A DNA stretch of 64,000 nt. Origin: a virus. Under the pieces are notes generated by a model. That model was not told where the DNA came from and ran no database searches. It saw only the letters and a program-made list of their open reading frames with translations. Positions 1 to 62,737 of the stretch are shown in pieces. Positions within the stretch are counted from its first letter, which is position 1. Each line of letters begins with the position of its first letter. The stretch covers positions 25,214 to 89,213 of IMG/VR virus record IMGVR_UViG_3300045988_108377. One strand, 5' to 3'. The position numbers were made by a program, and so were the translations under genes.

Positions 1-272
1 TCTATTCCGTTATGAACTTGATTGAAAAGAATCTCGTCTACGAGCTGTACTCCAGATACGAAATAGGCTGGTACTTCATGAATACCAATAGCTGTTGCAG
101 CTTTTGTACGCTGGTGTCCGGCAACAATGGTCTTGTTGTCACGATTCACGATAATCGGCAGAATAAAGCCGAGGTCGTTAAGACTACCTTGCAGGTTTAC
201 GAAAGCCTCTTGACTTAACTTTCGAGGATTGTAAGCTGCAGGCTTGATGTCTGAAATCTTGATAATCTCCAT
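1..272 (-). CDS. ParB/Srx-fold (ParB-like nuclease domain) protein, paralog 1; 3' end lies beyond window
   Basis: Own translation from ATG at complement 270-272: MEIIKISDIKPAAYNPRKLSQEAFVNLQGSLNDLGFILPIIVNRDNKTIVAGHQRTKAATAIG... The frame is open to base 1, so it is missing from the ORF track. Plus ORF 12-218 is its antisense shadow. Confidence 0.8.
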   Translation of the reverse strand, partial: MEIIKISDIKPAAYNPRKLSQEAFVNLQGSLNDLGFILPIIVNRDNKTIVAGHQRTKAATAIGIHEVPAYFVSGVQLVDEILFNQVHNGI

Positions 273-274
273 AA

Positions 275-955
275 TTATTTTTGATTTAATTTGTTAAACA
301 AAAACTTCACGAAACCAAAGTCAACTCCTATTTCATCAACATAATTCTCATATTGTTCAACAAGCTCGGCATATTCTTTTTTGCTGACTGCTACCGAATT
401 TTTGCCAAACATTAGTACGTTAATCTTCTTTGCGCTCTTAGAAAGTTTGTTCTTCTTAACCACCGTATCGTCTTCCGAAGCGTCATAGAAAAGACCTTCG
501 TCGAATCCAAAGTTAACGAGATTTATTTGGTCATACATCTTTGTAAGGCGGTCAAAGTCATATTCTCCGTATTCTTCGTTGTCCTTAAAGATGTACTCTT
601 TTTCTTCTTTCTCTGTTAAGTCTTTGGCTACAGATACTTCTACAACTGGATTCTTAACCCACTCTTTCCAGTAGTCAACGACTTGTTCTTGTTGCGATGG
701 TGAAAGCAACTTCCATTTTTCATTTTCTGACATCGTTAGAATCCAATCCATAGGAGAACTTTTTAATATCTCCTTGAGAATATCAGTACGTTGATTCCCA
801 CCAAGTACCATGTTATCTTTATTGATGGTAATGTCACGATAGTAAAGCATCTTAGGAAACAAAAGAATGCTCTGCTTTAAACGTGCTTTCTTGTCTTTGC
901 TAATCTTTCTAGGATTGTTTGGATTGGCGATTAATTCTGTTACATTTATCTTCAT
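275..955 (-). CDS. ParB/Srx-fold protein, paralog 2
   Basis: 226 aa. ParB-like N-domain strings LIANPNNPRKIS, MVLGGNQRTDIL, EKEYIFKDNEEYG. Full-length paralog of 955-1707. 1-nt overlap with the upstream gene. Confidence 0.8.
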   Translation of the reverse strand: MKINVTELIANPNNPRKISKDKKARLKQSILLFPKMLYYRDITINKDNMVLGGNQRTDILKEILKSSPMDWILTMSENEKWKLLSPSQQEQVVDYWKEWVKNPVVEVSVAKDLTEKEEKEYIFKDNEEYGEYDFDRLTKMYDQINLVNFGFDEGLFYDASEDDTVVKKNKLSKSAKKINVLMFGKNSVAVSKKEYAELVEQYENYVDEIGVDFGFVKFLFNKLNQK

Positions 956-1707
956 TATTCTTCCTCCTCTGAATTTTCGTTATTGTCAGCTTCGTACTCA
1001 ATTCCAAGTAGATATGAGAGGAAACCATCACCGCTTCCAAAATTCTGCTCACAATAATTTGTAAGAGCATTATCGAGCATTTTGTACTCTTCATCTGTGA
1101 TGGTTACTTCGATATATCCGCACTTGAATGACTTGGAACGAACAACGGTTGTATCTACTTCTGCATCGTTAATCTTATTCTCGTCGTAATCATACAGATT
1201 CCAAGGCACAGAACCTACATATTCCTCTATATCACTACGGTCATACTCCTTTTTGAGAACTTCCACATCGTCCTCTCCATAATGAAGGTTGTCTTTGGCA
1301 AGAAACTCCTTTTCTTCCTCAGGTGTCATGTCATCTGCTATCTTTGCCGGCACGACAGGATTGTCCTTCCATTTGTTCCAAAAGGACTTCAACTCGTTCT
1401 GTTTCTCCTCGGGAGCGAGACGATACTTAGACTGGTTTTCCAGATATTCCTCAATCTCAGCATCTTCCATGTTGAGAATATTCAAGAGAACTTGGAGACG
1501 CTGATTGCCACCGAGAGCCACCTTGTCCTTATTTAAGATGATAGGGCGGAGCTCTAACATCTTAGGAAATACAAGAAGGCTCTCAGTGAGCTTGCCCATC
1601 ATGAACTCACTGATTGTTCGTGGATTCTCAGGGTTCACTTTCAATTGTGTTACTTTTATTTTCTTTTTCGTTGCCATATTATTAATCTTTAATTGCGATG
1701 ATTCCAC
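955..1707 (-). CDS. ParB/Srx-fold protein, paralog 3
   Basis: 250 aa. LKVNPENPRTIS, VALGGNQRLQVL, EKEFLAKDNLHYG. 26-nt overlap with the CmoA-like gene upstream. Confidence 0.8.
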   Translation of the reverse strand: MESSQLKINNMATKKKIKVTQLKVNPENPRTISEFMMGKLTESLLVFPKMLELRPIILNKDKVALGGNQRLQVLLNILNMEDAEIEEYLENQSKYRLAPEEKQNELKSFWNKWKDNPVVPAKIADDMTPEEEKEFLAKDNLHYGEDDVEVLKKEYDRSDIEEYVGSVPWNLYDYDENKINDAEVDTTVVRSKSFKCGYIEVTITDEEYKMLDNALTNYCEQNFGSGDGFLSYLLGIEYEADNNENSEEEE

Positions 1708-2443
1708 AAAAATTCAGGTGCTTCCAGAAGGTATCAATCTTTCGAAAACCTGCCATCTTTAACATACTGATGTTCATTTCTTCGGTAAGAGGGCAGAGCA
1801 CACCTTCCAGGGACTTACGCTTGCCAGCTATCTGTTCTTCCGTATATTGGTTCTCTCGCTTCATGTCGTAATAGATTGAAGAGAAGAGTTCACCAATCTC
1901 GGCTGAGTTGCCGAGTACTTTTTCCACCAAGATGAAGGCACCGCCATCGTTTAGGCTGTTATAAACACTCTCTATGATTCCTTGGCGATACTCTATTGGT
2001 ATAAACTGCAAGGTGAGGCATGAGAGAATGACAGAGCAACCACCACTAAAACTAAGGTAACCAATTGGGTGCTTAGCGAGGTCTAAACCCATGACACGAA
2101 CATAACCTTCTGAAATCTGTTGTTTGTAGTGTTCACGACATTTTGCAAGCATCGGCTCGCTAACATCATAAAGATAGGAGATAACTTCTTTCGAATGGTT
2201 AGCGATAATGCCTTCTGCCGACAGACCATTGGCGCAACCTAAGTCCACGAACCGAGTGTTTGGCTTGATAAAATGCTCTGCAACATTATCCACCAACTTT
2301 CGCATGACAGAGTAGTCTGGTATGGAGCGTTCCAACATATCCGTAAAAACGTCGGCTACGTTTTGGTCAAAATCCCAACTACCGGACAGATTTCTTATGT
2401 CGTCTCGTTTCTTTGCTTCTATATTATTGTTTTGCTGTGCCAT
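1682..2443 (-). CDS. cmoA: CmoA-like carboxy-S-adenosylmethionine synthase (class I SAM-MTase fold)
   Basis: 253 aa, collinear with E. coli CmoA as I recall it. WDFDQNVADVFTDMLERSIPDYS (Ec [23 protein letters not shown]); FVDLGCANG (Ec VYDLGCSLG); LTLQFIP (Ec FTLQFLE); GGAFILVEK (Ec GGALVLSEK); YTEEQIAGKRKSLEGVL (Ec YSELEISQKRSMLENVM); LNFCGIIAIK (Ec FNFGSLVALK). Confidence 0.75.
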   Translation of the reverse strand: MAQQNNNIEAKKRDDIRNLSGSWDFDQNVADVFTDMLERSIPDYSVMRKLVDNVAEHFIKPNTRFVDLGCANGLSAEGIIANHSKEVISYLYDVSEPMLAKCREHYKQQISEGYVRVMGLDLAKHPIGYLSFSGGCSVILSCLTLQFIPIEYRQGIIESVYNSLNDGGAFILVEKVLGNSAEIGELFSSIYYDMKRENQYTEEQIAGKRKSLEGVLCPLTEEMNISMLKMAGFRKIDTFWKHLNFCGIIAIKD

Positions 2444-2449
2444 GATTCT

Positions 2450-2839
2450 TTATTTTATTGTTGCAACCTCAAATCCGAAATAGTCAATCAAGGCATACAA
2501 CACCTTTGCCGACATCTTCCTTTTCTCGTTTACTATTGTCGAAAGTGTGCTACCGCTCACGTTTGTTGTCTTGGCGATAGTTACCATTTTCTCCTTGCAA
2601 TCTTTAAGACATGCCTTCACTTTGTCCTCTATTAGATTGGGTGAGAAGGCTGAATCGTCTTTCTTCCAAGTTAGATTCAAGAGTTCCATGACTTTCACGA
2701 GATTTTCTGTTGTCAAGTTGCGATTTCCTTTCAAAAATGCATTGAAGTTCTGAACGACCAATCCACATTCCTTACACACCATCGTCTGATTGACACCCCG
2801 ATAGTGCATTCTTTCCTCTATAATTTCATTTATCTTCAT
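2450..2839 (-). CDS. XRE-family transcriptional regulator with two tandem HTH domains
   Basis: 129 aa. Two HTH-like repeats (GVNQTMVCKECGLVVQNFNAFLKGNRNLT and MVTIAKTTNVSGSTLSTIVNEKRKMS). First gene of the CmoA/ParB-like operon. Confidence 0.7.
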   Translation of the reverse strand: MKINEIIEERMHYRGVNQTMVCKECGLVVQNFNAFLKGNRNLTTENLVKVMELLNLTWKKDDSAFSPNLIEDKVKACLKDCKEKMVTIAKTTNVSGSTLSTIVNEKRKMSAKVLYALIDYFGFEVATIK

Positions 2840-2927
2840 AATTTCGTATTCAAGTGTTTGCCATTAATGACGGCACTATTTATTATTTGCTTTCTTGTTC
2901 GTTTTGCAGAAGTTTGCAATTATGTTG

Positions 2928-2935
2928 CAAAGATA
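2928..2935 (-). promoter_or_regulatory. Bacteroides-type -7 box for the regulator/CmoA operon
   Basis: caaagata on plus strand = TATCTTTG (TAnnTTTG) on minus, ~90 nt upstream of the ATG at 2839. The -33 match is weak. Confidence 0.4.
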
Positions 2936-3020
2936 ATCAAAAATACAATTATATACAAGTGTTTGATAAGTATTTTTGCAATTAACCTCAAAAATCTTTC
3001 ATTTATCGGTATTTTTTGAC

Positions 3021-3028
3021 TATCTTTG
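3021..3028 (+). promoter_or_regulatory. Plus-strand Bacteroides-type -7 box (TATCTTTG) with no ORF behind it
   Basis: tatctttg read directly on plus strand. TTTC (3 of 4 of TTTG) sits 20 nt upstream at 2997-3000. The downstream ATG opens only a 4-codon ORF. Confidence 0.35.
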
Positions 3029-3083
3029 CAGTATTAAATATGAACTTTATTTAATTTTGTGTTCCGCCTAACGGCAGTTCATA

Positions 3084-3122
3084 ATTTTGAATTTAAAGTG
3101 AAAATTTATTATTTGCATAAGA
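3084..3122 (-). repeat. Short-form (promoter-less) early leader cassette, decoy copy
   Basis: cataattttgaatttaaagtgaaaatttattatttgc matches the leader part of the early cassettes, but the attached minus-strand ORF is only MNCR-stop. Confidence 0.5.
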
Positions 3123-3159
3123 ACGAGCTCGTCCGTGAGGATAAGCTCTTCTGTTTTTT
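3120..3159 (+). terminator. Plus-strand intrinsic terminator candidate
   Basis: AGAA(C)GAGCT ... AGCTCTTCT, a 9-bp stem with one bulge, followed by G + TTTTTT on the plus strand. Confidence 0.4.
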
Positions 3160-3233
3160 ATATGGGTATGGGCTCTATAATTTCTTTCTGTATCTTCTTC
3201 TGATAACATCATAAATGACGGTATCACTTATTA

Positions 3234-3407
3234 TCATACAACCTCCTTCTCTTTTACATCAAATGTAACACTTTCTAACTCGCCATTCTCCAAAGCACCC
3301 AAATCATACAAACGTCTTACGGCATTTTCTGCGCCTTCGGATGATGCTGCGTCAATCGAAACCTTGTAGGTGATTTTCTCTACAATCTCTACTACATACT
3401 TTTTCAT
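3234..3407 (-). CDS. Hypothetical small protein (57 aa)
   Basis: Own translation MKKYVVEIVEKITYKVSIDAASSEGAENAVRRLYDLGALENGELESVTFDVKEKEVV. Below the ORF-track size cutoff. 25 nt downstream of the stop of gene 3433-3705. Confidence 0.45.
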   Translation of the reverse strand: MKKYVVEIVEKITYKVSIDAASSEGAENAVRRLYDLGALENGELESVTFDVKEKEVV

Positions 3408-3432
3408 ATCAAATCATTTCTATCTTATAGTT

Positions 3433-3705
3433 TTATTTTACTTTATCGAGATCACATATTAAAACGTTTCCTACAATGATGTCTTGTCTACCTGCAGACT
3501 GGATAATATTTGTTACGAAGATATTCATAGGAAGACCTAATAATTTCCCTTCTTCATTGACTATTACAAGTCTGTTATCTCCGAGCCTGATAATCTCAAT
3601 GTAGCCACCAACAAATCCATTAAGTTCTTCTAAGGAAAAGTCTGTGCCATTGGATGGGGTTACTTTTCTTCGCTCTCCATCCGTAGTGTAAAGTATTGAA
3701 TCCAT
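3433..3705 (-). CDS. DUF3846-like protein
   Basis: 90 aa. LEELNGFVGGYIEIIRLGDNRLVIVNEEGKLLGLPMN resembles the DUF3846 pattern as I recall it. Confidence 0.55.
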   Translation of the reverse strand: MDSILYTTDGERRKVTPSNGTDFSLEELNGFVGGYIEIIRLGDNRLVIVNEEGKLLGLPMNIFVTNIIQSAGRQDIIVGNVLICDLDKVK

Positions 3706-3778
3706 ATTTTTTTATTATGCTATTTATATTTGAGAATCTTTGTTTCAAAAAAACATCCATGCATCATCTCTATACTTG

Positions 3779-4183
3779 TTAGCTTCCGTAGCCGGTAAAC
3801 CTTCCAACTGCGGAACTGACGTTCTCGTTATGTACAGAACCTGGCTTTAGAAAATATTTATAATGTGAACTTCTCTCTAAGTTCTCATGCCAACCAAATC
3901 CGTAGGCATCAAACTCTTTTCCGCACCATTCATGTGCGTAATAATATTCATTAGCGTGTATCTTCCCTTCTTTATGAAAACAGAAATTGTAATAACAGTA
4001 TTCTGCTGCCATGTCGGATTTGTTAGCCTCATAACGAGAAACTACGTCTTCTCGTTTCTTTTTGTATTCAGCCAACTTCTGCTGATACTCTTCTTCCGTG
4101 TCGCAAAGATAATAATCTGTATCTGTCCAATGGCTTTCCCAATAGGAATTGGAAGACTGATGTATATGATAAATATTCTTCAT
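3779..4183 (-). CDS. Hypothetical protein
   Basis: 134 aa ORF, co-directional; no motif recognised. Confidence 0.6.
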   Translation of the reverse strand: MKNIYHIHQSSNSYWESHWTDTDYYLCDTEEEYQQKLAEYKKKREDVVSRYEANKSDMAAEYCYYNFCFHKEGKIHANEYYYAHEWCGKEFDAYGFGWHENLERSSHYKYFLKPGSVHNENVSSAVGRFTGYGS

Positions 4184-4291
4184 TTCTTCTCTCCCTCCAT
4201 CATTAAAAGTTTGTGTTCTTCTTCGCTGTCACCAACATGGCCAAAAGACTTGATAAGATTGAAATTTGAATTTCTCATAATTGTTCCCTTT

Positions 4292-4456
4292 CTATTTTTT
4301 AAGATTAAAATTGTATAATAATGCCAAATGGCTATCGTCCAACTCTCTCCAATCATCAACCGTGTCAAGATAAGCCTTGACTTTTGAAATTGTAATAGGA
4401 ACTGATGGGTAGGCAGAACGGAATCTGCGAAGCATGTACTCAGAAAGTGTCTCCAT
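4292..4456 (-). CDS. Hypothetical small protein (54 aa)
   Basis: Own translation METLSEYMLRRFRSAYPSVPITISKVKAYLDTVDDWRELDDSHLALLYNFNLKK. ATG is 2 nt after the stop of 4459-4890. Competes with track ORF 4180-4368 in another frame. Confidence 0.4.
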   Translation of the reverse strand: METLSEYMLRRFRSAYPSVPITISKVKAYLDTVDDWRELDDSHLALLYNFNLKK

Positions 4457-4458
4457 AA

Positions 4459-4890
4459 TTAATCCTCCTGGTCTAATTTATTGTACTCATTATATTTAAT
4501 TTCTATATTGTGTAGGAAGTTCTTCATCTCTGACTGTAACTTATCCAGCAAGTCTTTATTGGAAAGAAACACACCCAGAGCAATATAATACTTAGCTTTA
4601 CTATTAGTACTATCTATATCAATACTGGATGCTGCGTCTATTTCTGTTGCGAACTCAACATTTCCATGGAATCCGCATTTGCATTCATTATACACGACAG
4701 TCAACTCTCTGTTCTCATCGCAAGTTAAGGCAAACTTGACTTTTATCTGATTGCGAGAATCTTGAACGTTCACAAACTTCCAATCAGGGCACACAGAAAC
4801 TATATTTTCTACAAGTCCACCGAACTGGTTAAACAAGTTCTTAACCTCGTTCTTGATTTCGTTCTTTCTTAATTCAATAGTTGTATTCAT
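4459..4890 (-). CDS. Hypothetical protein
   Basis: 143 aa ORF; no motif recognised. Confidence 0.65.
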   Translation of the reverse strand: MNTTIELRKNEIKNEVKNLFNQFGGLVENIVSVCPDWKFVNVQDSRNQIKVKFALTCDENRELTVVYNECKCGFHGNVEFATEIDAASSIDIDSTNSKAKYYIALGVFLSNKDLLDKLQSEMKNFLHNIEIKYNEYNKLDQED

Positions 4891-5026
4891 AATCTTTATA
4901 ATTTTAATTGGTTCAACTTGTAAGGTAGGCTCTGAATAGTCAAAAGTACTACCTTTATCTATATGAAAAGGTACGAAAAATATTTGATATATGCTTGATT
5001 TTAACTATGATTTAAGACAAATCCTG

Positions 5027-5464
5027 TTAATCGAAGTCATGTGTTGCAGAAAACACATGCTCATTATATTTTTTAAATATCTCCTCCGATGAGAAATCAC
5101 TCCTTTTTAGATTTAAAGGCATGTTTAGTCTCATAAAGGCCTCATAGCTAAAATATGGGAAACAATCTGATATGTCTTCGCATTCAGGAAGAGGAACGTT
5201 CTTCTCGCAGAAGTCAATGAGCTCCAGCTGTTCCTTGCTACCTTCCTCAAAAGCATCCACTATAAAATACTCAGTGCAAGAGTATTTGTTAGTATCGTAA
5301 CGCTTCTCGCTGCCAATCTCCTGCAAATGCTTATTTATTATCTCTGCGCATTTAGCGTTATACAGAGCGAAATACTCTTCCTGCATTGTTTGTAAGGTGC
5401 GATACTCTTTTTTGGTTGCTACTTCCTTTGCAATAGCCAACTCATATTCTCTAATCTTGTTCAT
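5027..5464 (-). CDS. Hypothetical early protein
   Basis: 145 aa. ATG abuts early cassette copy A. Confidence 0.7.
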   Translation of the reverse strand: MNKIREYELAIAKEVATKKEYRTLQTMQEEYFALYNAKCAEIINKHLQEIGSEKRYDTNKYSCTEYFIVDAFEEGSKEQLELIDFCEKNVPLPECEDISDCFPYFSYEAFMRLNMPLNLKRSDFSSEEIFKKYNEHVFSATHDFD

Positions 5465-5585
5465 AATCTTGAATGTTTAAAGTGAATGTTATTTGTTTAT
5501 TATTTACACTACAAAGATAGGTATTTTTCATCAAATATGCAAGTAAATGACAGATTAATTTTATCAGAAACGAAAGATTTTTATG
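5465..5585 (-). promoter_or_regulatory. Early promoter+leader cassette, copy A
   Basis: -7 box complement at 5512-5519 (TATCTTTG). Conserved leader ...TAAATAATAAACAAATAACATTCACTTTAAACATTCAAGATTATG. Confidence 0.7.
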
Positions 5586-5595
5586 AACAGAAAAT

Positions 5596-5627
5596 GAGGG
5601 AGTACACCTTGATAGATGTGCTCCCTC
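5596..5627 (-). terminator. Intrinsic terminator
   Basis: GAGGGAGTACA / TGTGCTCCCTC, an 11-bp stem (one G-U), followed on the minus strand by ATTTTCTGTT. Confidence 0.6.
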
Positions 5628-5628
5628 T

Positions 5629-5797
5629 TACGGAACTTTAATTTGTAAATAATAAAACAATCACTCTTGATTATGGCCGTATGTTCCGTATAAGAAGGAG
5701 CTGGCGAAATCAACTTGAAACAATTCTATTAATCATTTAAAGGACATTCCTTAATGCCCCAATTTTAAATTTACTAAAAACATGATGCCAGCTCCTT
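5629..5797 (-). ncRNA. Candidate structured untranslated RNA (3' UTR element or sRNA)
   Basis: TACGGAAC 5629-5636 pairs with GTTCCGTA 5683-5690. AAGGAGCTGGC 5695-5705 pairs with GCCAGCTCCTT 5787-5797. No ORF longer than 10 codons. Confidence 0.25.
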
Positions 5798-5805
5798 TAT
5801 GTCTA

Positions 5806-6054
5806 TCAATCTATTCTTACGACAAGACGGCCTTTTGCTAATCTCCTCGTTCCTACATAACCACTATCGTTGCTTTTGATGTTGAAGACAATAGTCTTGT
5901 CGGTTTCCTTGACAATTCCCAAGATAGTTTCTTTTTTGCCGTAATTCCACATCGTTACGTCACCACTCTCTAATTCTGCAGCTCTTACCGCAGGCTTGAT
6001 GCCAACTCCTTGTAAGTGTAATGTTTCCGTCGCTAAATCGGTTTTGTACACCAT
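5806..6054 (-). CDS. Hypothetical protein
   Basis: 82 aa ORF, 3 nt from the upstream gene. Confidence 0.6.
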   Translation of the reverse strand: MVYKTDLATETLHLQGVGIKPAVRAAELESGDVTMWNYGKKETILGIVKETDKTIVFNIKSNDSGYVGTRRLAKGRLVVRID

Positions 6055-6965: not shown

Positions 6966-8588
6966 TTACTTCTGTGTCTTGAGCGTTTCGATGTATTTTT
7001 CCATTTCAGCTGTTTTCTTGGCGCATACATCCATCGCTTTTTGGGTAATCTCTCCAAGATCGTTCGGGAATTGCTTCTCCATTAACATGCCGAGCATTCC
7101 TGCCAAGTCATGTGAGTAACACACAGACCTCTCTGATAGAATCGCCTTGATAAACTCTCGTTTGATAGAATTGCGGTTCTTCTCGATGATAGCAACGTTC
7201 TTTTTGAATGAGGTTTCTGTGTTCTCCCATTCCATACCGATTTCTTTCTTGAAGGCCTGTGGAACAAACTTCATGAGGACAGCATGGAATATCTTTGTCT
7301 CGTCTGCTGACAATGGAGTGTTGAGTTTTGAGTACTCGCTCTTGGCTAAAGTCTCACGGTAGCCTTCGGTAATTTCCTGTCTGGCTTGCTCCTTGTAGCG
7401 TTGAATCATTGTCTTGCTCTCGCTAATTTTAGCCTTTTTGTCGATGGCAGTCTTTATCTCTTCTTCTGAGGCTCCTTTTGGTGCCATGAAAGAATACTTA
7501 ATTTCTCCAGAAAGTTTGCCACTGAAACATACCTCATAAACCTTTTCTGTTGTACCATCTGCCAAGTTGCTATCAAAGACCGCCTTTGCCTTGTCGTAGT
7601 TATCCTTGCGAACTCTGTAGTTTTCCTCATCAGAGAACTTTGTCTTGTCTGGCTCTACTAAAGGGTACACGTAGCTTCGCTTGGTATAATCCTTCAATTC
7701 GATACCGGCATCATGCGCTGCCTTGATGATGTCTTCGCAGCCGTCACCCTTGTAGATACATGGCAGACCGCTCCGCTTTGCCTCACGGAAGATGAACTCT
7801 TGGGTTTTCTTATTGAAACATGATGGGTTCATGCAGCGGTCACGGCCCTCGTTGTATTCCTCAGGCTTGTTCTTTGTGTTGAGAGGACAGCCCTCACAGT
7901 TCTTGCCACATGAGAAACTTTCGTCGAGCAACGAAAAACGTGCAGTATCAAGATACTTCATCACGCACTCATCAATCCATTCGTGAAGTACGTCCATAGG
8001 AAGAATCTTTCTCGTCCAACGTTCAATACACTCTGGTGTGAACTTCTCCATGTAGAGGGTTTCTTGTTGTCCCTTTGTGAGCTTGCAAATATCCAGAAGG
8101 TGGACAAGGTAAAGCGTTCCATTTCGCATCAGGTCAATATAACCTTGTGTGATGTTAGAGAGATTGATTCGGCTGATAACGTATGAGGAAGACTTACCAA
8201 GCATTTTGGCAATTTCCTTCACCTTCATGGTTTTGTCTTTCGTGAGCTTCGAGAATGCGGCTGCTTCCTCAATAGGGTCTACGTCTTTTCGTTGTAAGTT
8301 CTCGATAATCATGGCTGCAAACGCTTGCTTGTCGTCGAGATCCGTGCGCACGATGGCTTGAATTTCTTCCATTCCTGCGAGCAATGATGCTCGGTATCTG
8401 CGCTCTCCGCATACGATTTCATATTTCTTACCACTCTCTTTTGGAGCCTTACGGATGGTGATAGGCTGTATCAGACCGTTCTCCTTGATGTTATCAGCTA
8501 ATTCCTTAAGGCTTTCCTGGTCGAAAGTCTTACGTGGGTTCAACGAACTTGGGCAAATGTCTGCCAACGAAATAGTCTTTACTTGCAT
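6966..8588 (-). CDS. parB: ParB/Spo0J-family protein with long C-terminal extension
   Basis: 540 aa. LNPRKTFDQESLKELADNIKENGLIQPITIRK, IVCGERRYRASLLAG (GERRxRA box II), IIENLQRKDV, HTH VKEIAKMLGKSSSYVISRI. Cys cluster CGKNCEGCP...RCMNPSC. No parA seen. Confidence 0.85.
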   Translation of the reverse strand: MQVKTISLADICPSSLNPRKTFDQESLKELADNIKENGLIQPITIRKAPKESGKKYEIVCGERRYRASLLAGMEEIQAIVRTDLDDKQAFAAMIIENLQRKDVDPIEEAAAFSKLTKDKTMKVKEIAKMLGKSSSYVISRINLSNITQGYIDLMRNGTLYLVHLLDICKLTKGQQETLYMEKFTPECIERWTRKILPMDVLHEWIDECVMKYLDTARFSLLDESFSCGKNCEGCPLNTKNKPEEYNEGRDRCMNPSCFNKKTQEFIFREAKRSGLPCIYKGDGCEDIIKAAHDAGIELKDYTKRSYVYPLVEPDKTKFSDEENYRVRKDNYDKAKAVFDSNLADGTTEKVYEVCFSGKLSGEIKYSFMAPKGASEEEIKTAIDKKAKISESKTMIQRYKEQARQEITEGYRETLAKSEYSKLNTPLSADETKIFHAVLMKFVPQAFKKEIGMEWENTETSFKKNVAIIEKNRNSIKREFIKAILSERSVCYSHDLAGMLGMLMEKQFPNDLGEITQKAMDVCAKKTAEMEKYIETLKTQK

Positions 8589-12155: not shown

Positions 12156-12184
12156 ATTACAAAACCTTAAAACTATGGAACATT

Positions 12185-12928
12185 TTATTTCAGGCTTTGC
12201 CTTCGATACTTACTGAATACCCAACGAGCTAAAACGCTCGCCAGTATGACAAGTGCAATCCCTAAAAAGGTGAGAGCGATGTAAAGTGTCTGCTTGGATT
12301 CGGACACGGATTGTTTCTTGTCGGTTGAACGTTTTGTTTCTTTTCTCTTGTTCGTGGTCGCAGACGATGAGCTTTCGGAATTTGTATTGTTTTCCTCTTT
12401 CTCGTTGGCAACCACTGTTGAAGCTTTATTTGTCATTTCCTTTTGCGCAGACGATGTTGAGGCTCCACGCTTCTCTATCTTCGTCTGCCTGATGGTCTTA
12501 CTTACCTTTGGCTTGGCATCCTTGGCAGTATCGCTTGTGTCGTAGATGGTTGTTTCAGTAATAGTGACGGTCTCACTATTCTCTGAAGACTCATTCTTTT
12601 GCTCTGTGGTCGTGCTGACGGAATCGGTTGCGGACTTAGCCTTGTCTGACGATGTGGTGGAGTTAGTTTGCTCCGACGTATCTATTTGGGTCTGTTCCGT
12701 CTCGTTCTCGTTGACCTGCTCTGAGGACATTTGCTTGCTACTTCCACAAGATACAAGAATGATGATTGTGAACCATGCTATGCAGGAAAGCACAAATACG
12801 GATAGCACACCATGGTAACCTCCAAGAAAGCTCATAATGTTATGCGTTCCGAAACGTGATGCTCCGGACTCCTGGCTACTTCGCTCCATACGTAGGGCTT
12901 TGAATAACTTGTTTATGACTTTTTCCAT
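12185..12928 (-). CDS. Ser/Thr/Asn/Glu-rich membrane or lipoprotein-like protein
   Basis: 247 aa. N-terminal hydrophobic stretch ending in the lipobox-like LVSCGSS. ~150-aa low-complexity S/T/E/N/K region. C-terminal TM LYIALTFLGIALVILASVLA. Confidence 0.65.
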   Translation of the reverse strand: MEKVINKLFKALRMERSSQESGASRFGTHNIMSFLGGYHGVLSVFVLSCIAWFTIIILVSCGSSKQMSSEQVNENETEQTQIDTSEQTNSTTSSDKAKSATDSVSTTTEQKNESSENSETVTITETTIYDTSDTAKDAKPKVSKTIRQTKIEKRGASTSSAQKEMTNKASTVVANEKEENNTNSESSSSATTNKRKETKRSTDKKQSVSESKQTLYIALTFLGIALVILASVLARWVFSKYRRQSLK

Positions 12929-12939
12929 GATGATGTAAT

Positions 12940-13416
12940 TTAATATGGGTAACTCAAATTCTCTGCCTTGATGTCAGACAGAAAGTCCACAAACTCGTTT
13001 GCTGTTGACTTCGCTTGCTTTAGATCGTGTAAGGAATAGTTGCCACATTCCTTTGGTGAACTGCCTGGTATCACACCTTCATAGTCAGCAATGACTATGA
13101 ACATATCCCTAATAAGGTCTATCACTTGCAAACTATCGTAGTCGCCATTGAGAATGAGGTAGAAACCTGTGAGGCATCCCATAGGTCCGAAATAAACGAC
13201 CTTATCCTTCCATTTGCTGTCGTTGCGTAGGATTGTCGCTCCGATGTGTTCGATGGTGTGAGCGCACTCTGGAGTTAACATGTCGTAGTTCGGCTTCTTG
13301 ATACGAATATCAATAGTTGTGATGGTCTCACCCATGGAAGTAACATCTTTGCGAGAAACATAGATTCCACGGTCTAACTTCGTGTGGTCCACTTTAAAAC
13401 TTGCAATTTTACTCAT
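12940..13416 (-). CDS. luxS: S-ribosylhomocysteine lyase LuxS
   Basis: 158 aa. SFKVDHTKL, HTIEHI (metal His pair), GPMGCLTGFYL, ECGNYSLHDLKQAK match B. subtilis LuxS strings. ATGA overlap with mtnN. Confidence 0.9.
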   Translation of the reverse strand: MSKIASFKVDHTKLDRGIYVSRKDVTSMGETITTIDIRIKKPNYDMLTPECAHTIEHIGATILRNDSKWKDKVVYFGPMGCLTGFYLILNGDYDSLQVIDLIRDMFIVIADYEGVIPGSSPKECGNYSLHDLKQAKSTANEFVDFLSDIKAENLSYPY

Positions 13417-14105
13417 ACCAATTCCTCCAAGATTTTCTTTGTTTTGTCAAACGACCATTTTGCTACGTATTTCCAAAAATTCTCATATTGCTCTTCTTCA
13501 CAATTATCACTTATGATTCTGATGGCCACGAACGGAACCTTATAGCGGTAGCAGGTCTGTGCGATACTGCAACTCTCCATGTCTACAACGGAAGCCAATG
13601 GATATGTTGCTTTAAGTTTAGCCTTTATTACCGGGTCGACAATGAACTGGTCGCCACTGATAACACCAGCTATTCTTATGTTGTGTCCGAGTATTTTTCC
13701 AATACGAGCACATAAGTCACCTTCGGTGTTGATGCCAACCTCCAAAGGTGTGAATGTGCTTGGCATTCCTTGTACTTGTCCCTTGACAAGTTCTTTTCCA
13801 CAGAACACATCATGATAATGATACCATACACCCATGATAGTCTCACCCGAATGTAATTCTTCGTCCAGTGAGCCTGCTACTCCGGTAGATAGTATAAAGT
13901 CTGGTTCGTAGAGGGTAATCATTTCAGCAGCTCCCAAAGCAGAGTTGACCTTGCCTATTCCGCACTGCTGTATGACCACTTCATTCTTGCCGACATTACC
14001 GATCAAATAGTCAAATACTCTGCCATGTTCGGCTTGTCCTTCTGAAATGAATCCTTTTAGCAGCTCCATTTCCTTAGACATAGCTACTAATATTCCTATC
14101 TTCAT
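13413..14105 (-). CDS. mtnN: 5'-methylthioadenosine/S-adenosylhomocysteine nucleosidase (MtnN/Pfs)
   Basis: 230 aa. GIGKVNSALGAAEMI, STGVAGSL, VVDMESCSIAQ, VAIRIISD. ATGA overlap with metK. Confidence 0.88.
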   Translation of the reverse strand: MKIGILVAMSKEMELLKGFISEGQAEHGRVFDYLIGNVGKNEVVIQQCGIGKVNSALGAAEMITLYEPDFILSTGVAGSLDEELHSGETIMGVWYHYHDVFCGKELVKGQVQGMPSTFTPLEVGINTEGDLCARIGKILGHNIRIAGVISGDQFIVDPVIKAKLKATYPLASVVDMESCSIAQTCYRYKVPFVAIRIISDNCEEEQYENFWKYVAKWSFDKTKKILEELV

Positions 14106-15379
14106 AAGCCAAAAGCCTCTTTGATGTAATCAACAGAATCAAGCTTTTCCCATGTAAAAAGCTCAACTTCAATACTATGACCTTCGATTTTCTTGCGTTT
14201 CTTGCAAGGAATTCTGCCCATGTGCCCATAAGCAGCAGTTTCTTCATAGATAGGCTGATTAAGTTTCAACTTCTCAACGATTGCTCTTGGACGCATGTCG
14301 AAATTAGAAGCAATCCATTCTGTAACACCTTCGTCAGTCATTTCTACGTGTGAAGTACCATAGGTGTCAACACAGATACTTACTGGCTCTGCCATACCGA
14401 TAGCGTAGGAAATCTGAATGAGCATCTTATCGGAAACACCTGCAGCAACCATATTCTTCGCGATATAGCGAGCCATATAGGCTGCTGAACGGTCTACCTT
14501 ACTGCTATCTTTACCTGAGAAGGCACCTCCTCCATGCGCTCCAGCACCTCCGTATGTATCTACGATAATCTTACGACCTGTGAGACCTGTATCTCCATGA
14601 GGACCACCAATTACGAACTTGCCAGTCGGATTCACAAGCAACTTGAATCCCTTGTCAAACATCTTGACAACATTGTCGTCAGCAATCTGTTCCTTAACTT
14701 CTTGAAGAACGTAGTTCTCAACATCGTATGCTATCTGTTTCTGCATTTCTGCATCGGCTTCATCTTGCGACATCGTTTTCGATGGCTTGATAAAGTCCTC
14801 GTGCTGAGTTGAGACAACAATGGTGTCAATGCCGAAAGGTTTGCTGTCTTTGTATTCGACGGTTACTTGACTCTTCGAATCCGGACGCAAATATTTCATG
14901 CCACGCCCATTCTTTCTAATGAAAGCAAGTTCCTTGACAATCTTTGTGGCGATGTAGTGGGAGAGAGGCATGAATGTTTCAGTCTCGTTGGTTGCGTAAC
15001 CGAACATCATACCCTGGTCGCCGGCACCTTGCTCATCTTTTGACTGCCGGATAACACCCCTGTCGATGTCTGCGCTCTGCTCATGCAAAAGATTGATGAT
15101 ACTACAACTCTCGAAGTCAAAGTTGTCACCATATTCCGTGTAGCCAATGCGCTTGATGGTCTTACGTACAACCTTAGACACATCTACATGAGCGGTTGAT
15201 TTTACCTCACCAGCGAGAACTACCTGGTTGGTAGTAACCAAAGTTTCGCAAGCTACATGAGCATCAGCATCCTTTGCTATATAAGCGTCAAGAATAGCAT
15301 CGGAAATCTGGTCTGCAACCTTGTCAGGGTGTCCTTCTGATACGGATTCTGATGTAAAAAGTTTCTTTTCTTCTATCAT
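14102..15379 (-). CDS. metK: S-adenosylmethionine synthetase MetK
   Basis: 425 aa. FTSESVSEGHPDKVADQISDAILDA, GAGDQGMMFGYA, GGGAFSGKD. Confidence 0.95.
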   Translation of the reverse strand: MIEEKKLFTSESVSEGHPDKVADQISDAILDAYIAKDADAHVACETLVTTNQVVLAGEVKSTAHVDVSKVVRKTIKRIGYTEYGDNFDFESCSIINLLHEQSADIDRGVIRQSKDEQGAGDQGMMFGYATNETETFMPLSHYIATKIVKELAFIRKNGRGMKYLRPDSKSQVTVEYKDSKPFGIDTIVVSTQHEDFIKPSKTMSQDEADAEMQKQIAYDVENYVLQEVKEQIADDNVVKMFDKGFKLLVNPTGKFVIGGPHGDTGLTGRKIIVDTYGGAGAHGGGAFSGKDSSKVDRSAAYMARYIAKNMVAAGVSDKMLIQISYAIGMAEPVSICVDTYGTSHVEMTDEGVTEWIASNFDMRPRAIVEKLKLNQPIYEETAAYGHMGRIPCKKRKKIEGHSIEVELFTWEKLDSVDYIKEAFGL

Positions 15380-26073: not shown

Positions 26074-27435
26074 TTATGTACCACACCAAATATCCTTTAA
26101 CCGTTCAACTTCTTGTTTAAGTCCATTCTTTGCTATCTCATTGATTTTTTCTTTTAACAGCTGAGGCTCAAGCCGGTGAATTTCTTCACTCAATTCCTCA
26201 AGAGTCATTTGCGGTTTCATTATGTAGTCTTTGAGTTTCGCTTTCTCTGTCCTATCAAGGAGTTTGCCGACAATATCATCTTTCAGATAGTATTTATCTC
26301 CAGCTTCATTTTGAAGAATATCGTCAATAACGATTCCTCTATCTTTCGGTTGAGGAATATCCGACTTCTTGGTTGGCGGTTCAAAAGGATCGTCGTCAAA
26401 ATCAAACAAGTTCGTCTTACCGGTGTCTTTTACTCTGATGTTCGTCCAATAGATACGCTTGCGCTGCTGGGCAGATACCAAAGCAGAATTGATGTGAACA
26501 CCACGAATACCGATAGCATGAGACAGACAACGCTCCCATTTGTCAAGCATTTCTACGTTTTCGAGGAAGAAGAGTATATTTTGGTTATACTTGCGTAATT
26601 CTGTGAGAACACGCATATACTCCCAAAATAGATACGACTGGCCTTCAAACTCAAAACCTTGTGCTTTTAGTTCCAAGTACCGGTCAAGAGTGTAAATCTC
26701 CTCTCCATGACTTGTTGCTGCGCCTTTCAGCTTACCGCTCATAGAAAAGCCCTGGCATGGTGAACCACCGATAAGAATGTCAGGAATACCATATTGCCGT
26801 ACCATTTCGTCCACATTTAACTCTGTGACACTACCTATCTGAATAGTATTCGGGAAATTGTGCATTGTGTTTGCGATAGCATGCTTGTCTATCTCTGACG
26901 CAAGGTAGGTAGACACATTGGCACCAATACCATTGAGAGCCATCTGACCGCCGGATATTCCGTCAAACAACGACAATACTTTCATGTCTTTCTTTATCTC
27001 TTCGGGGATAAACTGAAAGATGTGCTTGATAGTCTCTATGTTCCATCCGTTACCAATACCATGGTACTGCTGTGTTTCGGAAGAAACAAACTCATAGTCG
27101 TGTGGAATTGTCTGCAACTTCGCACATTCTGATGGTGTCAGTCTACGTATGAAAGAAACAAAGGTGTGGCCGTTTATTTTAATCTCATAGCCTTGCTTGT
27201 CCTCCGGCATACGTTTCCTTATCTCTTCAAGCTGTCTTTTCCGAATGTTTCTGATGGCTTGTGATGCTATTTCTTCTTCATTACGCATATTCTCAAATAT
27301 TTGTAAAATGGCGGCTTTGTCACCACGTTTTCCTATACTTACGATGTGCTCAGTAGATAACGATCGGCACTTTTCTTTTCCACCTTTTATTATAAGGTGT
27401 GCTTGCGTACTAGGATAAATGACCGCTTGCCTCAT
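26074..27435 (-). CDS. DNA (cytosine-5)-methyltransferase, circularly permuted motif order
   Basis: 453 aa. Order in the ORF: IX RRLTPSECAKLQTIPHDYEF, X GIGNGWNIETIKHIF, then I LSLFDGISGG, IV GGSPCQGFS, VI FFLENV, VIII SAQQRKRIYWTN. Confidence 0.85.
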   Translation of the reverse strand: MRQAVIYPSTQAHLIIKGGKEKCRSLSTEHIVSIGKRGDKAAILQIFENMRNEEEIASQAIRNIRKRQLEEIRKRMPEDKQGYEIKINGHTFVSFIRRLTPSECAKLQTIPHDYEFVSSETQQYHGIGNGWNIETIKHIFQFIPEEIKKDMKVLSLFDGISGGQMALNGIGANVSTYLASEIDKHAIANTMHNFPNTIQIGSVTELNVDEMVRQYGIPDILIGGSPCQGFSMSGKLKGAATSHGEEIYTLDRYLELKAQGFEFEGQSYLFWEYMRVLTELRKYNQNILFFLENVEMLDKWERCLSHAIGIRGVHINSALVSAQQRKRIYWTNIRVKDTGKTNLFDFDDDPFEPPTKKSDIPQPKDRGIVIDDILQNEAGDKYYLKDDIVGKLLDRTEKAKLKDYIMKPQMTLEELSEEIHRLEPQLLKEKINEIAKNGLKQEVERLKDIWCGT

Positions 27436-31911: not shown

Positions 31912-31950
31912 CTTGCGAATGGCTCGTAACAAACCGAAAAGTTGTCGCAA

Positions 31951-33180
31951 ATGAATCTGAGAGTTGTCATACTTCCTGCTAAGGTCTTGACGGACGGAAG
32001 TCATAAAGTTAGAATTGCAATTTCACACAGAGGTAACACAAGATACTTTGTTACCAGATTTACCGTGCCATCGGAGAAAAACTTGGTTAATGGCAATGTC
32101 GTTGGAATACCGAATGCCGCATACATCAACAACCAAATCAGACTGAAACTAAATAAAATCTATAATGCCTTCGACTCCCTGGAGGAATCTGATTATTATA
32201 CGTGTTCTCAGTTGGTAACTATGATTGAGGAAAAGATTTCCGGCACCAAACCAATGACGCTTCATCAGCTTGGAGTGGAATATATCAAAGTGAGGCGTTC
32301 TGTGGTAGCTGATGGTACAGTCTATATATACGAGCGAGGAATGGCAGAAATTGACTCGTTCTTTGGCACAGACTTTATCCTTCCTAAACTTAAGGTTACT
32401 GATGTAAGTGCTTTCAAGGAATACTTGTCGAAAAAGCTTAATCCAACGACAACCAACTTAAGATTGCGTGTTCTAAACATGATTGTTACCTATGCTGTTA
32501 GGCACAATTATGTCAAGTATGATGTATCTCCGTTTACCGATGTGCCATTGCCTCACGGAAACGTTAGAAACTGCGCAATATCAATCGAACAATTACGTGT
32601 TGTAAGAGATATGGAGTTCTCAAATTCTCGTCTTGATGTTTGCCTTTCTTTTGTTAGAGACATCTTTATGCTTTCGTTCTATCTGTGTGGTATGAACTTA
32701 GCGGATATTCTCTCTATGGATTTACGTAAAGACTCTGTTTCGTTTGTCAGACAGAAGACTAAGAACAGAAAAACTGACGGGGTTAAGACTGAATTTACGA
32801 TTCAGCCCGAGGCGAGAAAAATCCTTGATAGATTACTTGACAAAGACGGAAATATTGTATTCAAAGGAAAGAAAATGAGATACGACCCTATATCATGTTT
32901 GTTCTCCCGTAACTTTTCTGAGATTGCAGTAAGATGCGGAATTGAAACTCAATTCATATTCTATTCGGCCCGCAAGACTTTTGCACAAATCGCAAATGAG
33001 CTTATGGTAAAAGACTCCATCATAGAATATTGTATAGGTGACACTGTTACTTCTAGTAAAAAGATAATTGGCTACTATATTTCTGTTAACCAACGTATGG
33101 CAGACAAGGCAATACGAAAAATTTTTGATGCCGTTGCCTCTGACAAAAGTATAGAAGAACTTGTTGAGGATGCCATATAA
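31951..33180 (+). CDS. int: Tyrosine recombinase / phage integrase
   Basis: Started at ATG 31951 (the track used TTG 31942). N-terminal arm-binding-like LRVVILPAKVLTDGSHKVRIAISHRGNTRYF. C-terminal boxes SARKTFAQ and IIGYYISV. Confidence 0.8.
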   Translation: MNLRVVILPAKVLTDGSHKVRIAISHRGNTRYFVTRFTVPSEKNLVNGNVVGIPNAAYINNQIRLKLNKIYNAFDSLEESDYYTCSQLVTMIEEKISGTKPMTLHQLGVEYIKVRRSVVADGTVYIYERGMAEIDSFFGTDFILPKLKVTDVSAFKEYLSKKLNPTTTNLRLRVLNMIVTYAVRHNYVKYDVSPFTDVPLPHGNVRNCAISIEQLRVVRDMEFSNSRLDVCLSFVRDIFMLSFYLCGMNLADILSMDLRKDSVSFVRQKTKNRKTDGVKTEFTIQPEARKILDRLLDKDGNIVFKGKKMRYDPISCLFSRNFSEIAVRCGIETQFIFYSARKTFAQIANELMVKDSIIEYCIGDTVTSSKKIIGYYISVNQRMADKAIRKIFDAVASDKSIEELVEDAI

Positions 33181-61768: not shown

Positions 61769-62737
61769 TTATAATTTTATGTCTTGCTCTTGCTTTGTCA
61801 TAACTTTGCAGCCAAGATGCTTATTAAAATACTTTAAGTCCTTTCCGTTAATTTTTCTATCTGCAACAAATCGGTTATGCTGCAAAATACGAGACGATGC
61901 TATAGTTCGGGAACATGCGATCTGCCTGGCAGATAGGCTTTGATGGTATTCTTCCAATGTTTTGTCTATCTCATAACCAACAAAGTTTCTACCACTGTCT
62001 AATGCGGCTTGCATTGTCGTTCCAAGACCAAGGAATGGGTCGAGCACCGTGTCTCCCTTGCACGAATACATGTTGATAAGACGGTAAGGTATTTCGTAAG
62101 GGAAGGCTGCGCTTCTTGTTCGAGATTTTCCGTCAGCCATCTTCTGCTTTACACCCTTCACATTCCAGGTGTCAGAGAACCACGTATTTCTCTCTTCCCA
62201 GAAGAATGCGCTTTGTCTTCGAATTTTCTTCTCCTCCTCGGTCTTAAACTTTCGCCTTTTGCCCTTTCTGAATATTAGTATGTATTCGTGTTCGAGGGTG
62301 ATATAAGCACCACATGGAAGCATACCACTTCCCATAAACTTATTTGGGGCATTTGTTTGCTTCCTCCAAATGACGCATGGAAGTTCCGTAAAACCAAGAC
62401 CTCTGCAATATAGCGATATTTTCGCATGGTTATTGAACAGCTGGAAGTTTCCATTGATAGTTCTTGTAGCATCTCCTATATTGATACAAAGGAAACCTCC
62501 TTCTGAAAGAACCCTGTAACACTCCCTCCATATATTGTTGAGTATTCCGTGCATTAAATCGAAAGATACGGATGGATTATCTGCAAGGTTGCACGCAATG
62601 GCTTTATTTTGCATTGCAAATATATCGTCCCACATTTCAACCATCGGATATGGAGGCGATGTTACTACAATATTGATGCTTTCATCTGCCAACTCTCCCA
62701 TATTGCATGCCGACTTATAATAGATATTTCTTTTCAT
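61769..62737 (-). CDS. Beta-class DNA amino-methyltransferase (N4-cytosine or N6-adenine; SPPY type)
   Basis: 322 aa. Motif IV VVTSPPY precedes motif I VLDPFLGLGTT. HEYILIFRKG, AAFPYEIPYRLI. Confidence 0.85.
   Translation of the reverse strand: MKRNIYYKSACNMGELADESINIVVTSPPYPMVEMWDDIFAMQNKAIACNLADNPSVSFDLMHGILNNIWRECYRVLSEGGFLCINIGDATRTINGNFQLFNNHAKISLYCRGLGFTELPCVIWRKQTNAPNKFMGSGMLPCGAYITLEHEYILIFRKGKRRKFKTEEEKKIRRQSAFFWEERNTWFSDTWNVKGVKQKMADGKSRTRSAAFPYEIPYRLINMYSCKGDTVLDPFLGLGTTMQAALDSGRNFVGYEIDKTLEEYHQSLSARQIACSRTIASSRILQHNRFVADRKINGKDLKYFNKHLGCKVMTKQEQDIKL

Follow-up and report, generated by a model that had tools for sequence, protein, structure and literature searches.

Which enzyme consumes the carboxy-S-adenosylmethionine (Cx-SAM) that a phage would make if its genome encodes a CmoA-family protein and no recognizable CmoB or CmoX? 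This question is raised by a five-gene operon at positions 1–2839 of the 64,000-nucleotide stretch of viral DNA analyzed here (hereafter, the window; positions 25,214 to 89,213 of IMG/VR virus record IMGVR_UViG_3300045988_108377). The operon encodes, from its first gene to its fifth, a helix-turn-helix (HTH) regulator, a CmoA-family protein, two short ParB-like proteins (ParB1 and ParB2), and a third protein with a ParB domain, whose gene is cut by the window edge. We found that this third protein is a fusion of two ParB-like domains to a class I methyltransferase domain. The new observation reported here is a recurrent, and in one subfamily of fusions near-obligate, pairing of CmoA with such a ParB-methyltransferase fusion instead of with CmoX. 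We regard the fusion as the likely user of Cx-SAM in this phage. The more specific reading, in which the operon encodes a CmoX-independent variant of the phage Cx-SAM DNA-modification pathway with the fusion as the transferase, has in our estimate an even chance of being correct.

Few Cx-SAM consumers are known, namely CmoB acting on tRNA, a domain in a microcin pathway, and phage CmoX. In the microcin C-like MccS/MccB pathway, Cx-SAM comes from a CmoA homolog and is used by a methyltransferase domain joined to a ThiF-like adenylyltransferase; the substrate is a small molecule, a peptidyl-cytidylate. Besides CmoB, the published literature has included phage CmoX, which acts on the C5 of DNA cytosine, since late 2025 (PMC12783734). 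In that work, which appeared in December 2025, the CmoA of Synechococcus phage S-B43 was shown experimentally to make Cx-SAM and supplies it to CmoX, which produces 5-carboxymethylcytosine (5cxmC) in DNA; CmoY, an ATP-dependent, asparagine-synthetase-like enzyme, ligates glycine to 5cxmC to give 5-glycyl-cxmC (PMC12783734). A structure from this CmoA-CmoX-CmoY pathway is available (PDB 8YF3). CmoX is a C5-methyltransferase homolog with an SPPC motif and an Arg350 that replaces HhaI Asn304, and in SpCmoX this arginine contacts the carboxymethyl group (PMC12783734). The original prediction for this locus, made from the window alone, was aware of no described phage Cx-SAM pathway; this has become outdated, and its proposal that the phage makes Cx-SAM for use on its own DNA is plausible as an established mechanism and is not new as it was stated (PMC12783734). 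The published survey started from CmoX homologs, and its preliminary search gave no CmoA-linked candidates for N6-adenine or N4-cytosine carboxymethyltransferases; it noted ParB-domain proteins on many CmoX contigs and assigned them no role, and its supplements do not mention ParB, PF13489 or fusion-carrying phages (PMC12783734).

We characterized the product of gene 2 by asking how closely it follows CmoA. The 253-amino acid (aa) protein matched TIGR00740, the CmoA model, over positions 12–239 of 239 (E 8.9e-48, 163 bits), while the next-best NCBIfam family, BioC, reached 35.7 bits. It also matched PHROG 4752 (237 bits) and aligned end to end with the E. coli CmoA structure 4GEK (E 3e-38), so that the collinearity with CmoA claimed for it at the outset extends over its whole length. 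We therefore assign it to the CmoA family on the strength of these profile and alignment matches. The arginine that had been put forward as the ligand contact is also in place: the KR of AGKRKSLEG aligns with E. coli SQKRSMLEN and represents K198 and Arg199, the latter forming a salt bridge with the Cx-SAM carboxylate in the E. coli enzyme (PMC3663124). Y39, D62, G64, D89, F137, and E164 are retained as well. Judging from its family membership and from these ligand residues, the window CmoA would convert S-adenosylmethionine (SAM) and prephenate to Cx-SAM and phenylpyruvate.

Two features of the protein count against this activity. Its score falls below the TIGR00740/NF011995 equivalog cutoff of 193.3 bits, and it differs from E. 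coli CmoA at four ligand residues (S66A, N90V, D117P, and N132S), one of which, now a proline, is the adenine-binding Asp117. Together with the loss of Arg199 from the CmoA-like proteins of the distant carriers SM1, Evaa, and HJ05, they would be expected if the protein were not a Cx-SAM synthase but either a further methyltransferase or a subunit that partners the fusion without being catalytic itself. We consider this alternative unlikely, given that CmoA is by far the best family (163 versus 36 bits) and that R199, K198, and E164 are kept. Moreover, Synechococcus phage S-B05 is closely related to S-B43, and its CmoA is near-identical to the validated SpCmoA and yet more divergent than the window protein: it scores 115.6 bits with TIGR00740, so that the window CmoA lies nearer to bacterial CmoA, it also lacks Arg199, and it varies at several of the ligand positions that vary in the window CmoA. 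A CmoA adjoining a bona fide CmoX scored 163.7 bits. Because of these two scores, we take the cutoff of 193 to be too strict for phage enzymes. Finally, CmoX-linked and fusion-linked CmoAs are interspersed in a neighbor-joining tree, which suggests that CmoAs of one kind work with either partner. As a separate observation, in IMG/VR contigs from sample 3300045988 (L024-L030) the fusions are 93–99% identical to that of the window phage and the CmoAs only 71–83%, a divergence that indicates local mosaicism or replacement at the cmoA gene.

The fifth gene had been read as the last of three ParB paralogs. On the source contig (L001, 114.8 kb) it is complete, at 12172–13548, and encodes 458 aa. The protein begins with a ParB_N domain (Pfam PF02195, E 4.9e-10), continues with a degenerate domain that is also ParB-like, and ends in a class I Rossmann methyltransferase domain with VFDFGCGKA as motif I and a weak Methyltransf_23 match. 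Thus, the paralogy holds for ParB1 and ParB2, which we take to be true paralogs from their 36.7% identity over 229 aa (E 5e-41), and not for the third protein as a plain ParB, although both short proteins match the N-terminal ParB domain of the fusion. An AlphaFold2 model of P0001, which is 98% identical to the window fusion, contained two ParB-like domains followed by a Rossmann methyltransferase domain (mean pLDDT 85.5, pTM 0.77). The window fusion shares its domain architecture with the ParB-CTPase-fold methyltransferase fusions (PHROG 5475; CDD ParB_N_like_MT) and is a full-length member, matching PHROG 5475 collinearly (255 bits; aa 4–448 against model positions 6–452 of 458). PHROG 5475 is annotated as 'unknown function'. 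The combination of PF02195 and PF13489 has been described as phage-enriched and as a 'predicted DNA methyltransferase', with no cofactor, substrate or link to CmoA given (PMC12704722).

The fusion family comprises 210 clusters (50% identity, E <= 1e-30), and among the best 150 of these nearly all members are 440–490 aa long with full-length matches. A sister subfamily has fusions of ~505–520 aa. In the ParB domain, NPR and GHQR are invariant in both subfamilies, with GHQR at least 90% conserved, and the methyltransferase domains of the two have DFGxG, E264, VxNSV, Q377, and EFxLP in common.

We then addressed how often such fusions accompany CmoA, using three surveys of 80 IMG/VR loci each, which were centered on the window-type fusion, on the closest CmoA, and on the sister fusion subfamily. 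A ParB-methyltransferase fusion adjoined CmoA in 49 of the 80 closest CmoA loci (43 complete, 6 cut by the contig end), and a C5-methyltransferase did so in 23, 20 of which had the SPPC motif. The remaining 8 loci were too short to judge; none had both partners, and none with adequate flanks had neither. The fusion-linked CmoA loci belong to at least five lineages with GC contents of 0.39–0.63, between which the fusions are 21–43% and the CmoAs 41–60% identical. Gene order differs among them: HTH-CmoA-antirepressor-ParB-ParB-fusion in L117, ParB-ParB-fusion-CmoA-terS-TerL with overlapping stop and start codons in L115 and L122, and fusion-164 aa-CmoA in the L152 group. Linkage was tightest in the sister subfamily, where a CmoA-like gene lies 0–1.3 kb downstream of the fusion in 79 of 80 loci, often with overlapping stop and start codons; the one exception ends at a contig edge. 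The co-occurrence of CmoA with ParB-like genes that the original prediction proposed to survey therefore extends well beyond the window phage. It does not extend through the window subfamily, to which we return below.

Two side observations concern these loci. In the CmoX-type loci (L113-L165), a short ParB protein of 159–192 aa usually lies immediately upstream of CmoX-CmoA, and in one locus (L131) CmoA stands beside a C5-methyltransferase with an ordinary GFPC motif, not SPPC. A HAD-like protein of ~160 aa ('phosphatase', with a DLNYTLV motif) recurs in or beside the CmoA-fusion module of the sister subfamily (L115:6602-7081, L152:9478-9972, and L267:2633-3115, the last being gp4 of Gordonia phage Evaa); neither Pfam nor NCBIfam matched it at the thresholds applied, and neither the window nor the contig encodes a homolog of it.

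If CmoA supplies Cx-SAM, other enzymes of the phage might use it, and two DNA methyltransferases in the window had been named as possible consumers. In the published arrangement, CmoA would feed the circularly permuted C5-cytosine methyltransferase to make 5cxmC, with the ParB proteins as accessories. The genome does hold a PF00145 enzyme, the only C5-methyltransferase in the window; CmoA with a C5-methyltransferase homolog is a validated system, and ParB-domain proteins are often found on CmoX contigs (PMC12783734). We compared this enzyme with CmoX, taking the reference CmoA, CmoY, and CmoX from S-B05 (CmoX with SPPC at 95–98 and R350 in VGRMVPP, in SpCmoX numbering). Its motif IV reads GGSPCQGFS, as opposed to DGSPPCSAFS in CmoX, and the residue aligned to SpCmoX R350 (HhaI N304) is an asparagine (GIGNGW versus VGRMVPP), which is the methyl-donor state. 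By contrast, GR[MSA]VPP occurs in 18 of 19 long, CmoA-adjacent SPPC open reading frames. The enzyme was rejected as a CmoX since both signature residues fail (GSPC for SPPC, Asn for Arg350); it is probably an ordinary SAM-dependent 5-methylcytosine methylase. It also lies 24 kb from CmoA, whereas true CmoX genes abut CmoA or lie within 2.5 kb of it (0–2.5 kb), and no C5-methyltransferase was found within 6–10 kb in the other fusion-linked loci. We thus consider it very unlikely that the published pathway, as such, operates here. The second enzyme, the N6/N4 DNA methyltransferase, is ~59 kb away with no detectable link to CmoA, and its candidacy is not supported either.

The permutation of the C5-methyltransferase is itself worth recording. 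Motifs IX-X (RRLTPSECAKLQ...GIGNGWNIETIKHIF, aa 97–141) precede motif I (aa 152), after which come motifs IV (GGSPCQGFS), VI (ENV), and VIII (QQRKRIYW). The enzyme has PHROG matches to families of short 'DNA methyltransferase' proteins whose last motifs are IX-X, which suggest that its relatives may be split or tandem genes.

The search for further consumers left the fusion. Neither a tblastn search with E. coli CmoB in the window and contig nor one with S-B05 CmoY in the window and L001/L002 gave a match, and a motif regular expression and local hidden Markov models (HMMs) detected no further class I methyltransferase within the window. The statement that the 64 kb hold no CmoB-like gene accordingly stands at the sensitivity of tblastn and HMM searches, with the addition that a class I methyltransferase domain, that of the fusion, lies just beyond coordinate 1 and inside the same operon. 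Because there is no match to CmoX, CmoB or CmoY and the fusion is encoded in the same operon across a 2-nt gap, the fusion is the best candidate consumer.

The searches for CmoB also bear on the idea that the phage reprograms host tRNA, its CmoA raising Cx-SAM so that host CmoB makes more 5-carboxymethoxyuridine at the wobble position (cmo5U34). CmoA had this role ancestrally, and the phage homologs bear the label 'tRNA methyltransferase' in PHROG and RefSeq. However, neither the window nor the contig encodes CmoB, the linkage to ParB-fold DNA-binding proteins beside terminase genes would be left unexplained, and Pseudomonas aeruginosa already has CmoA and CmoB, yet its phages carry CmoA beside the fusion. 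We regard tRNA reprogramming as very improbable indeed, slightly more so than the published CmoX route. The bacterial CmoA/CmoB pair resembles the window pair in having a full-length CmoA with Arg199 and in that the putative consumer is likewise a class I Rossmann transferase. Unlike CmoB, the candidate consumer here is fused to ParB DNA-clamp domains and encoded in a packaging-proximal phage module, and the CmoB determinants K91, Y200, and R315 cannot be mapped on it.

Does the fusion itself use Cx-SAM, or is it an ordinary SAM-dependent methyltransferase acting on DNA, RNA or protein, next to which CmoA works independently, as a SAM drain against host defenses or as a source of Cx-SAM as a signal or inhibitor? 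Several results weigh against Cx-SAM use. Foldseek comparison of the fusion model with the PDB yielded nothing but generic class I methyltransferases: Trm9, which ranked first, GNMT, METTL6, and a Fusobacterium 'cmo5U34 methyltransferase' entry. These matches do not discriminate cofactor or substrate. The fusion profile matched ParB and, weakly, UbiG among PDB sequences. Alignment of this profile with E. coli CmoB by hhalign covered 30 columns around motif I at 42% probability. No alignment column cleanly separates CmoA-linked from unlinked fusions, which show weak, conservative differences only (reference positions R199 and E362) and no new basic residue, and no conserved basic residue could be placed at the methyl site from the alignment columns. 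Within the window subfamily (PHROG 5475), CmoA lies within 10 kb of the fusion in just 11 of 80 IMG/VR loci and near it in 2 of 37 loci in bacterial genomes; the ParB1-ParB2-fusion-SNF2-TerL block is conserved across the 80 loci. Bacteroides phage BS-TP3 has a short ParB and a fusion and no CmoA in the 84% of its genome examined, and three Yersinia phages with a short ParB and a fusion are absent from our list of CmoA matches. These phages indicate that fusions can occur where the phage has no CmoA and that SAM may be their normal cofactor, so that the window-subfamily fusion may be an ordinary SAM-dependent methyltransferase that is paired with CmoA in some phages only. Alternatively, phages without CmoA may rely on host Cx-SAM, which is plausible for enterobacterial hosts. 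That DNA is the substrate of the fusion is likewise something we infer from gene linkage.

The scarcity of CmoA near most window-subfamily fusions and the generic Methyltransf_23 assignment by Pfam are thus what one would expect of an independent, SAM-dependent enzyme, and SAM depletion by CmoA was raised as a possibility in the CmoX study (PMC12783734). Nevertheless, a SAM drain in the same tight operon would work against a SAM-dependent fusion, and the phage invests in MetK, MtnN, and LuxS, which keep SAM up. Independent functions would also leave unexplained the adjacency in 79 of 80 sister-subfamily loci and the mutual exclusivity with CmoX. We therefore judge an ordinary methyltransferase beside an independent CmoA to be rather unlikely; both SAM drainage and tRNA reprogramming fit the linkage data poorly.

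The 11 CmoA-positive window-type loci fall into the window clade, in which CmoA is adjacent, and a tandem-fusion clade, in which it lies ~4–5 kb upstream. Members of the latter (L013-L020, L036, L037, L052, L053, and L110, relatives at ~55% identity) carry two tandem ParB-methyltransferase fusions of ~450 aa, and where the DNA reaches far enough upstream (L017-L020 and L110), CmoA directly follows a gene for a ThiF-like protein (E1/adenylyltransferase). ThiF together with ParB recalls the PRTRC cassettes, and ThiF together with a CmoA homolog recalls microcin C-type carboxymethylation. The microcin system differs from the window operon in not being a phage DNA modification, although a ThiF-like gene adjoins CmoA in some relatives of the window phage. 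The nearest relatives of the fusion in bacteria are in Bacteroidales prophages (Bacteroidaceae, Prevotella, Muribaculaceae, and Barnesiella).

How might the fusion work as a Cx-SAM-dependent transferase? The window CmoA would convert SAM and host prephenate to Cx-SAM, and the Rossmann domain of the fusion would transfer the carboxymethyl group from Cx-SAM to nucleic acid of the phage, most probably its DNA. The fused ParB/CTPase-fold domains, with ParB1 and ParB2, would load or activate the enzyme on double-stranded DNA, and MetK, MtnN, and LuxS would replenish SAM and remove S-adenosylhomocysteine (SAH). The product need not be 5cxmC. The role proposed for the ParB modules follows an analogy: a ParB activator is needed for the activity of the 5mYOX phage thymine dioxygenase on double-stranded DNA (PMC13229309). 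The window operon resembles the 5mYOX system in that the phage gene for a DNA-modifying enzyme has neighbors encoding short ParB-like proteins that lack a canonical DNA-binding domain. The two systems differ in the class of enzyme and in its chemistry, and in the window operon one ParB module is fused to the enzyme with two more free-standing. As members of the ParB/CTPase fold, the modules would be expected to clamp DNA and to bind or hydrolyze a nucleoside triphosphate.

Pfam misses both short proteins, but PHROG and a family HMM detect them. ParB1 matches the PHROG ParB-like families 498, 620, 8071, and 940, and ParB2 matches 498 (E 6e-17) and 620 (E 8e-15); with the family ParB_N HMM, they score E 5e-8 and E 2.5e-9, respectively. 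The box II strings reported for the two short proteins and the fusion are all present.

Compared with the S-B43 pathway, the window system is alike in its logic, in that the phage would make its own Cx-SAM for nucleic-acid modification, and in its layout, with genes for a phage CmoA and a methyltransferase-fold enzyme closely packed in one operon and ParB-domain proteins encoded nearby. Unlike in S-B43, the partner is a ParB-ParB-class I Rossmann fusion with DFGxG, VxNSV, and EFxLP, not a PF00145 enzyme with SPPC and Arg350, and the window phage has no CmoY-type amide ligase. As a broader and more tentative proposal, for which we would not claim even chances, the fusions could constitute a second, structurally unrelated family of natural Cx-SAM DNA carboxymethyltransferases. 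Members of such a family would be tethered by a clamp, would load near the packaging site with their short ParB partners, would place their mark on a base or atom other than that in 5cxmC, and would range from Bacteroidales phages to those of Pseudomonas, Aeromonas, and Gordonia. If this is true, a natural modification of DNA (or RNA) and a fold that uses Cx-SAM, both new, would be added to those known. A large family of orphan phage proteins (PHROG 5475 and the sister subfamily, hundreds of clusters from human-gut and environmental phages) would acquire a function, and phage ParB-like proteins would have a concrete job in loading or activating DNA-modifying enzymes. There would also be implications for restriction evasion by gut phages and for tools that carboxymethylate DNA at chosen sites.

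The idea is testable now, because the module is present in cultured phages. The sister-subfamily module, with a short ParB, the fusion, a CmoA-like gene, and terminase, occurs in Pseudomonas phages of the SM1/PaMx31 group (Samunavirus), in Gordonia phage Evaa, whose fusion is annotated as 'ParB-N-terminal-like domain methyltransferase', and in Aeromonas phage HJ05. For the small methyltransferases of SM1, Evaa, and HJ05, the best NCBIfam family is CmoA, at 92–121 bits over the full length. Our literature search found no paper on the DNA chemistry of the SM1/PaMx31, Evaa or HJ05 phages. In the SM1 locus (L266, NC_041877.1 46346–48706), the fusion is labeled 'hypothetical protein' in RefSeq and 'tail fiber protein' in sister records, and Samunavirus CmoA-like genes are labeled 'tRNA methyltransferase', 'DNA replication protein' or 'tail assembly protein'; in several of these records, the labels for the fusion and the CmoA-like gene are clear annotation errors.

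The features of the window are collected in Table 1. Open reading frame listing and translation agree with the five co-directional genes led by a dual-HTH regulator that had been described, and Pfam matches did the same for MetK, MtnN, LuxS, and both DNA methyltransferases.

Table 1. Coordinates, strand, and supporting matches of the genes of the CmoA operon and of other genes considered in the window
Feature	Position	Strand	Evidence or remark
HTH regulator, 129 aa	2450-2839	-	Pfam HTH_26 at aa 7-57 and HTH_3 at aa 88-124
CmoA-family protein, 253 aa, predicted Cx-SAM synthase	1682-2443	-	TIGR00740, PHROG 4752, 4GEK
ParB1, short ParB-like protein, 240 aa from ATG	955-1677	-	Box II GGNQR; PHROG ParB-like families; GTG at 1707 is an alternative start
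ParB2, short ParB-like protein, 226 aa	275-955	-	Box II GGNQR; PHROG 498 and 620
ParB-ParB-class I methyltransferase fusion, first 90 codons of 458 aa	1-272	-	ParB_N (AGHQR); frame runs off the window
LuxS	12940-13416	-	Pfam LuxS, 179 bits
MtnN-like nucleosidase	13413-14105	-	PNP_UDP_1, 121 bits
MetK	14102-15379	-	Three S-AdoMet synthetase domains
C5-cytosine DNA methyltransferase, circularly permuted	26074-27435	-	PF00145, E 2.5e-36
N6/N4 DNA methyltransferase	61769-62737	-	PF01555, E 1.2e-41

The junctions within the operon, from gene 1 to gene 5, are a 6-nt gap, a 4-nt gap, a 1-nt overlap, and a 2-nt gap. The last two are as originally described, whereas the 26-nt overlap given for CmoA and ParB1 arose because the GTG at 1707 was assumed to be the start. 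Gene calls on 10 public contigs that encode the identical 253-aa CmoA start ParB1 at ATG 1677, and ParB1 homologs also begin at this position; even with this start, the arrangement is operon-like. In the divergent locus L117, too, CmoA is directly preceded by an HTH gene, which encodes a 134-aa homolog of this two-domain, Cro/C1-type regulator. A scan of the operon for sigma-70 promoters and terminators did no better than shuffled sequences, Bacteroidetes promoters being outside its consensus.

Downstream of the fusion gene, the source contig encodes a protein of 159 aa, a small protein with an HTH_8 domain, an SNF2 helicase, and the large terminase. This order places the CmoA module at the packaging end of the genome, the operon immediately preceding the packaging genes of this Bacteroidales phage. 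Megablast of window positions 1–6000 against GenBank phages gave no match. The LuxS-MtnN-MetK genes form a contiguous block at 12940–15379 (minus strand), a phage-borne set for SAM synthesis and SAH recycling that would support heavy use of SAM or Cx-SAM; of the three, only the MtnN-like gene is retained near the ParB module in relatives. A tyrosine integrase with Bacteroidetes-type Arm-DNA-bind_5 and SAM_5 domains is encoded on the opposite strand (31942–33180, plus), and its domains fit a temperate Bacteroidales phage. Apart from the CmoA operon, the window also encodes a fourth ParB-family protein, of 540 aa (6966–8588, minus strand; PHROG 18726), which combines ParB_N with a canonical HTH_ParB domain and may serve a genuine partition or plasmid-prophage function.

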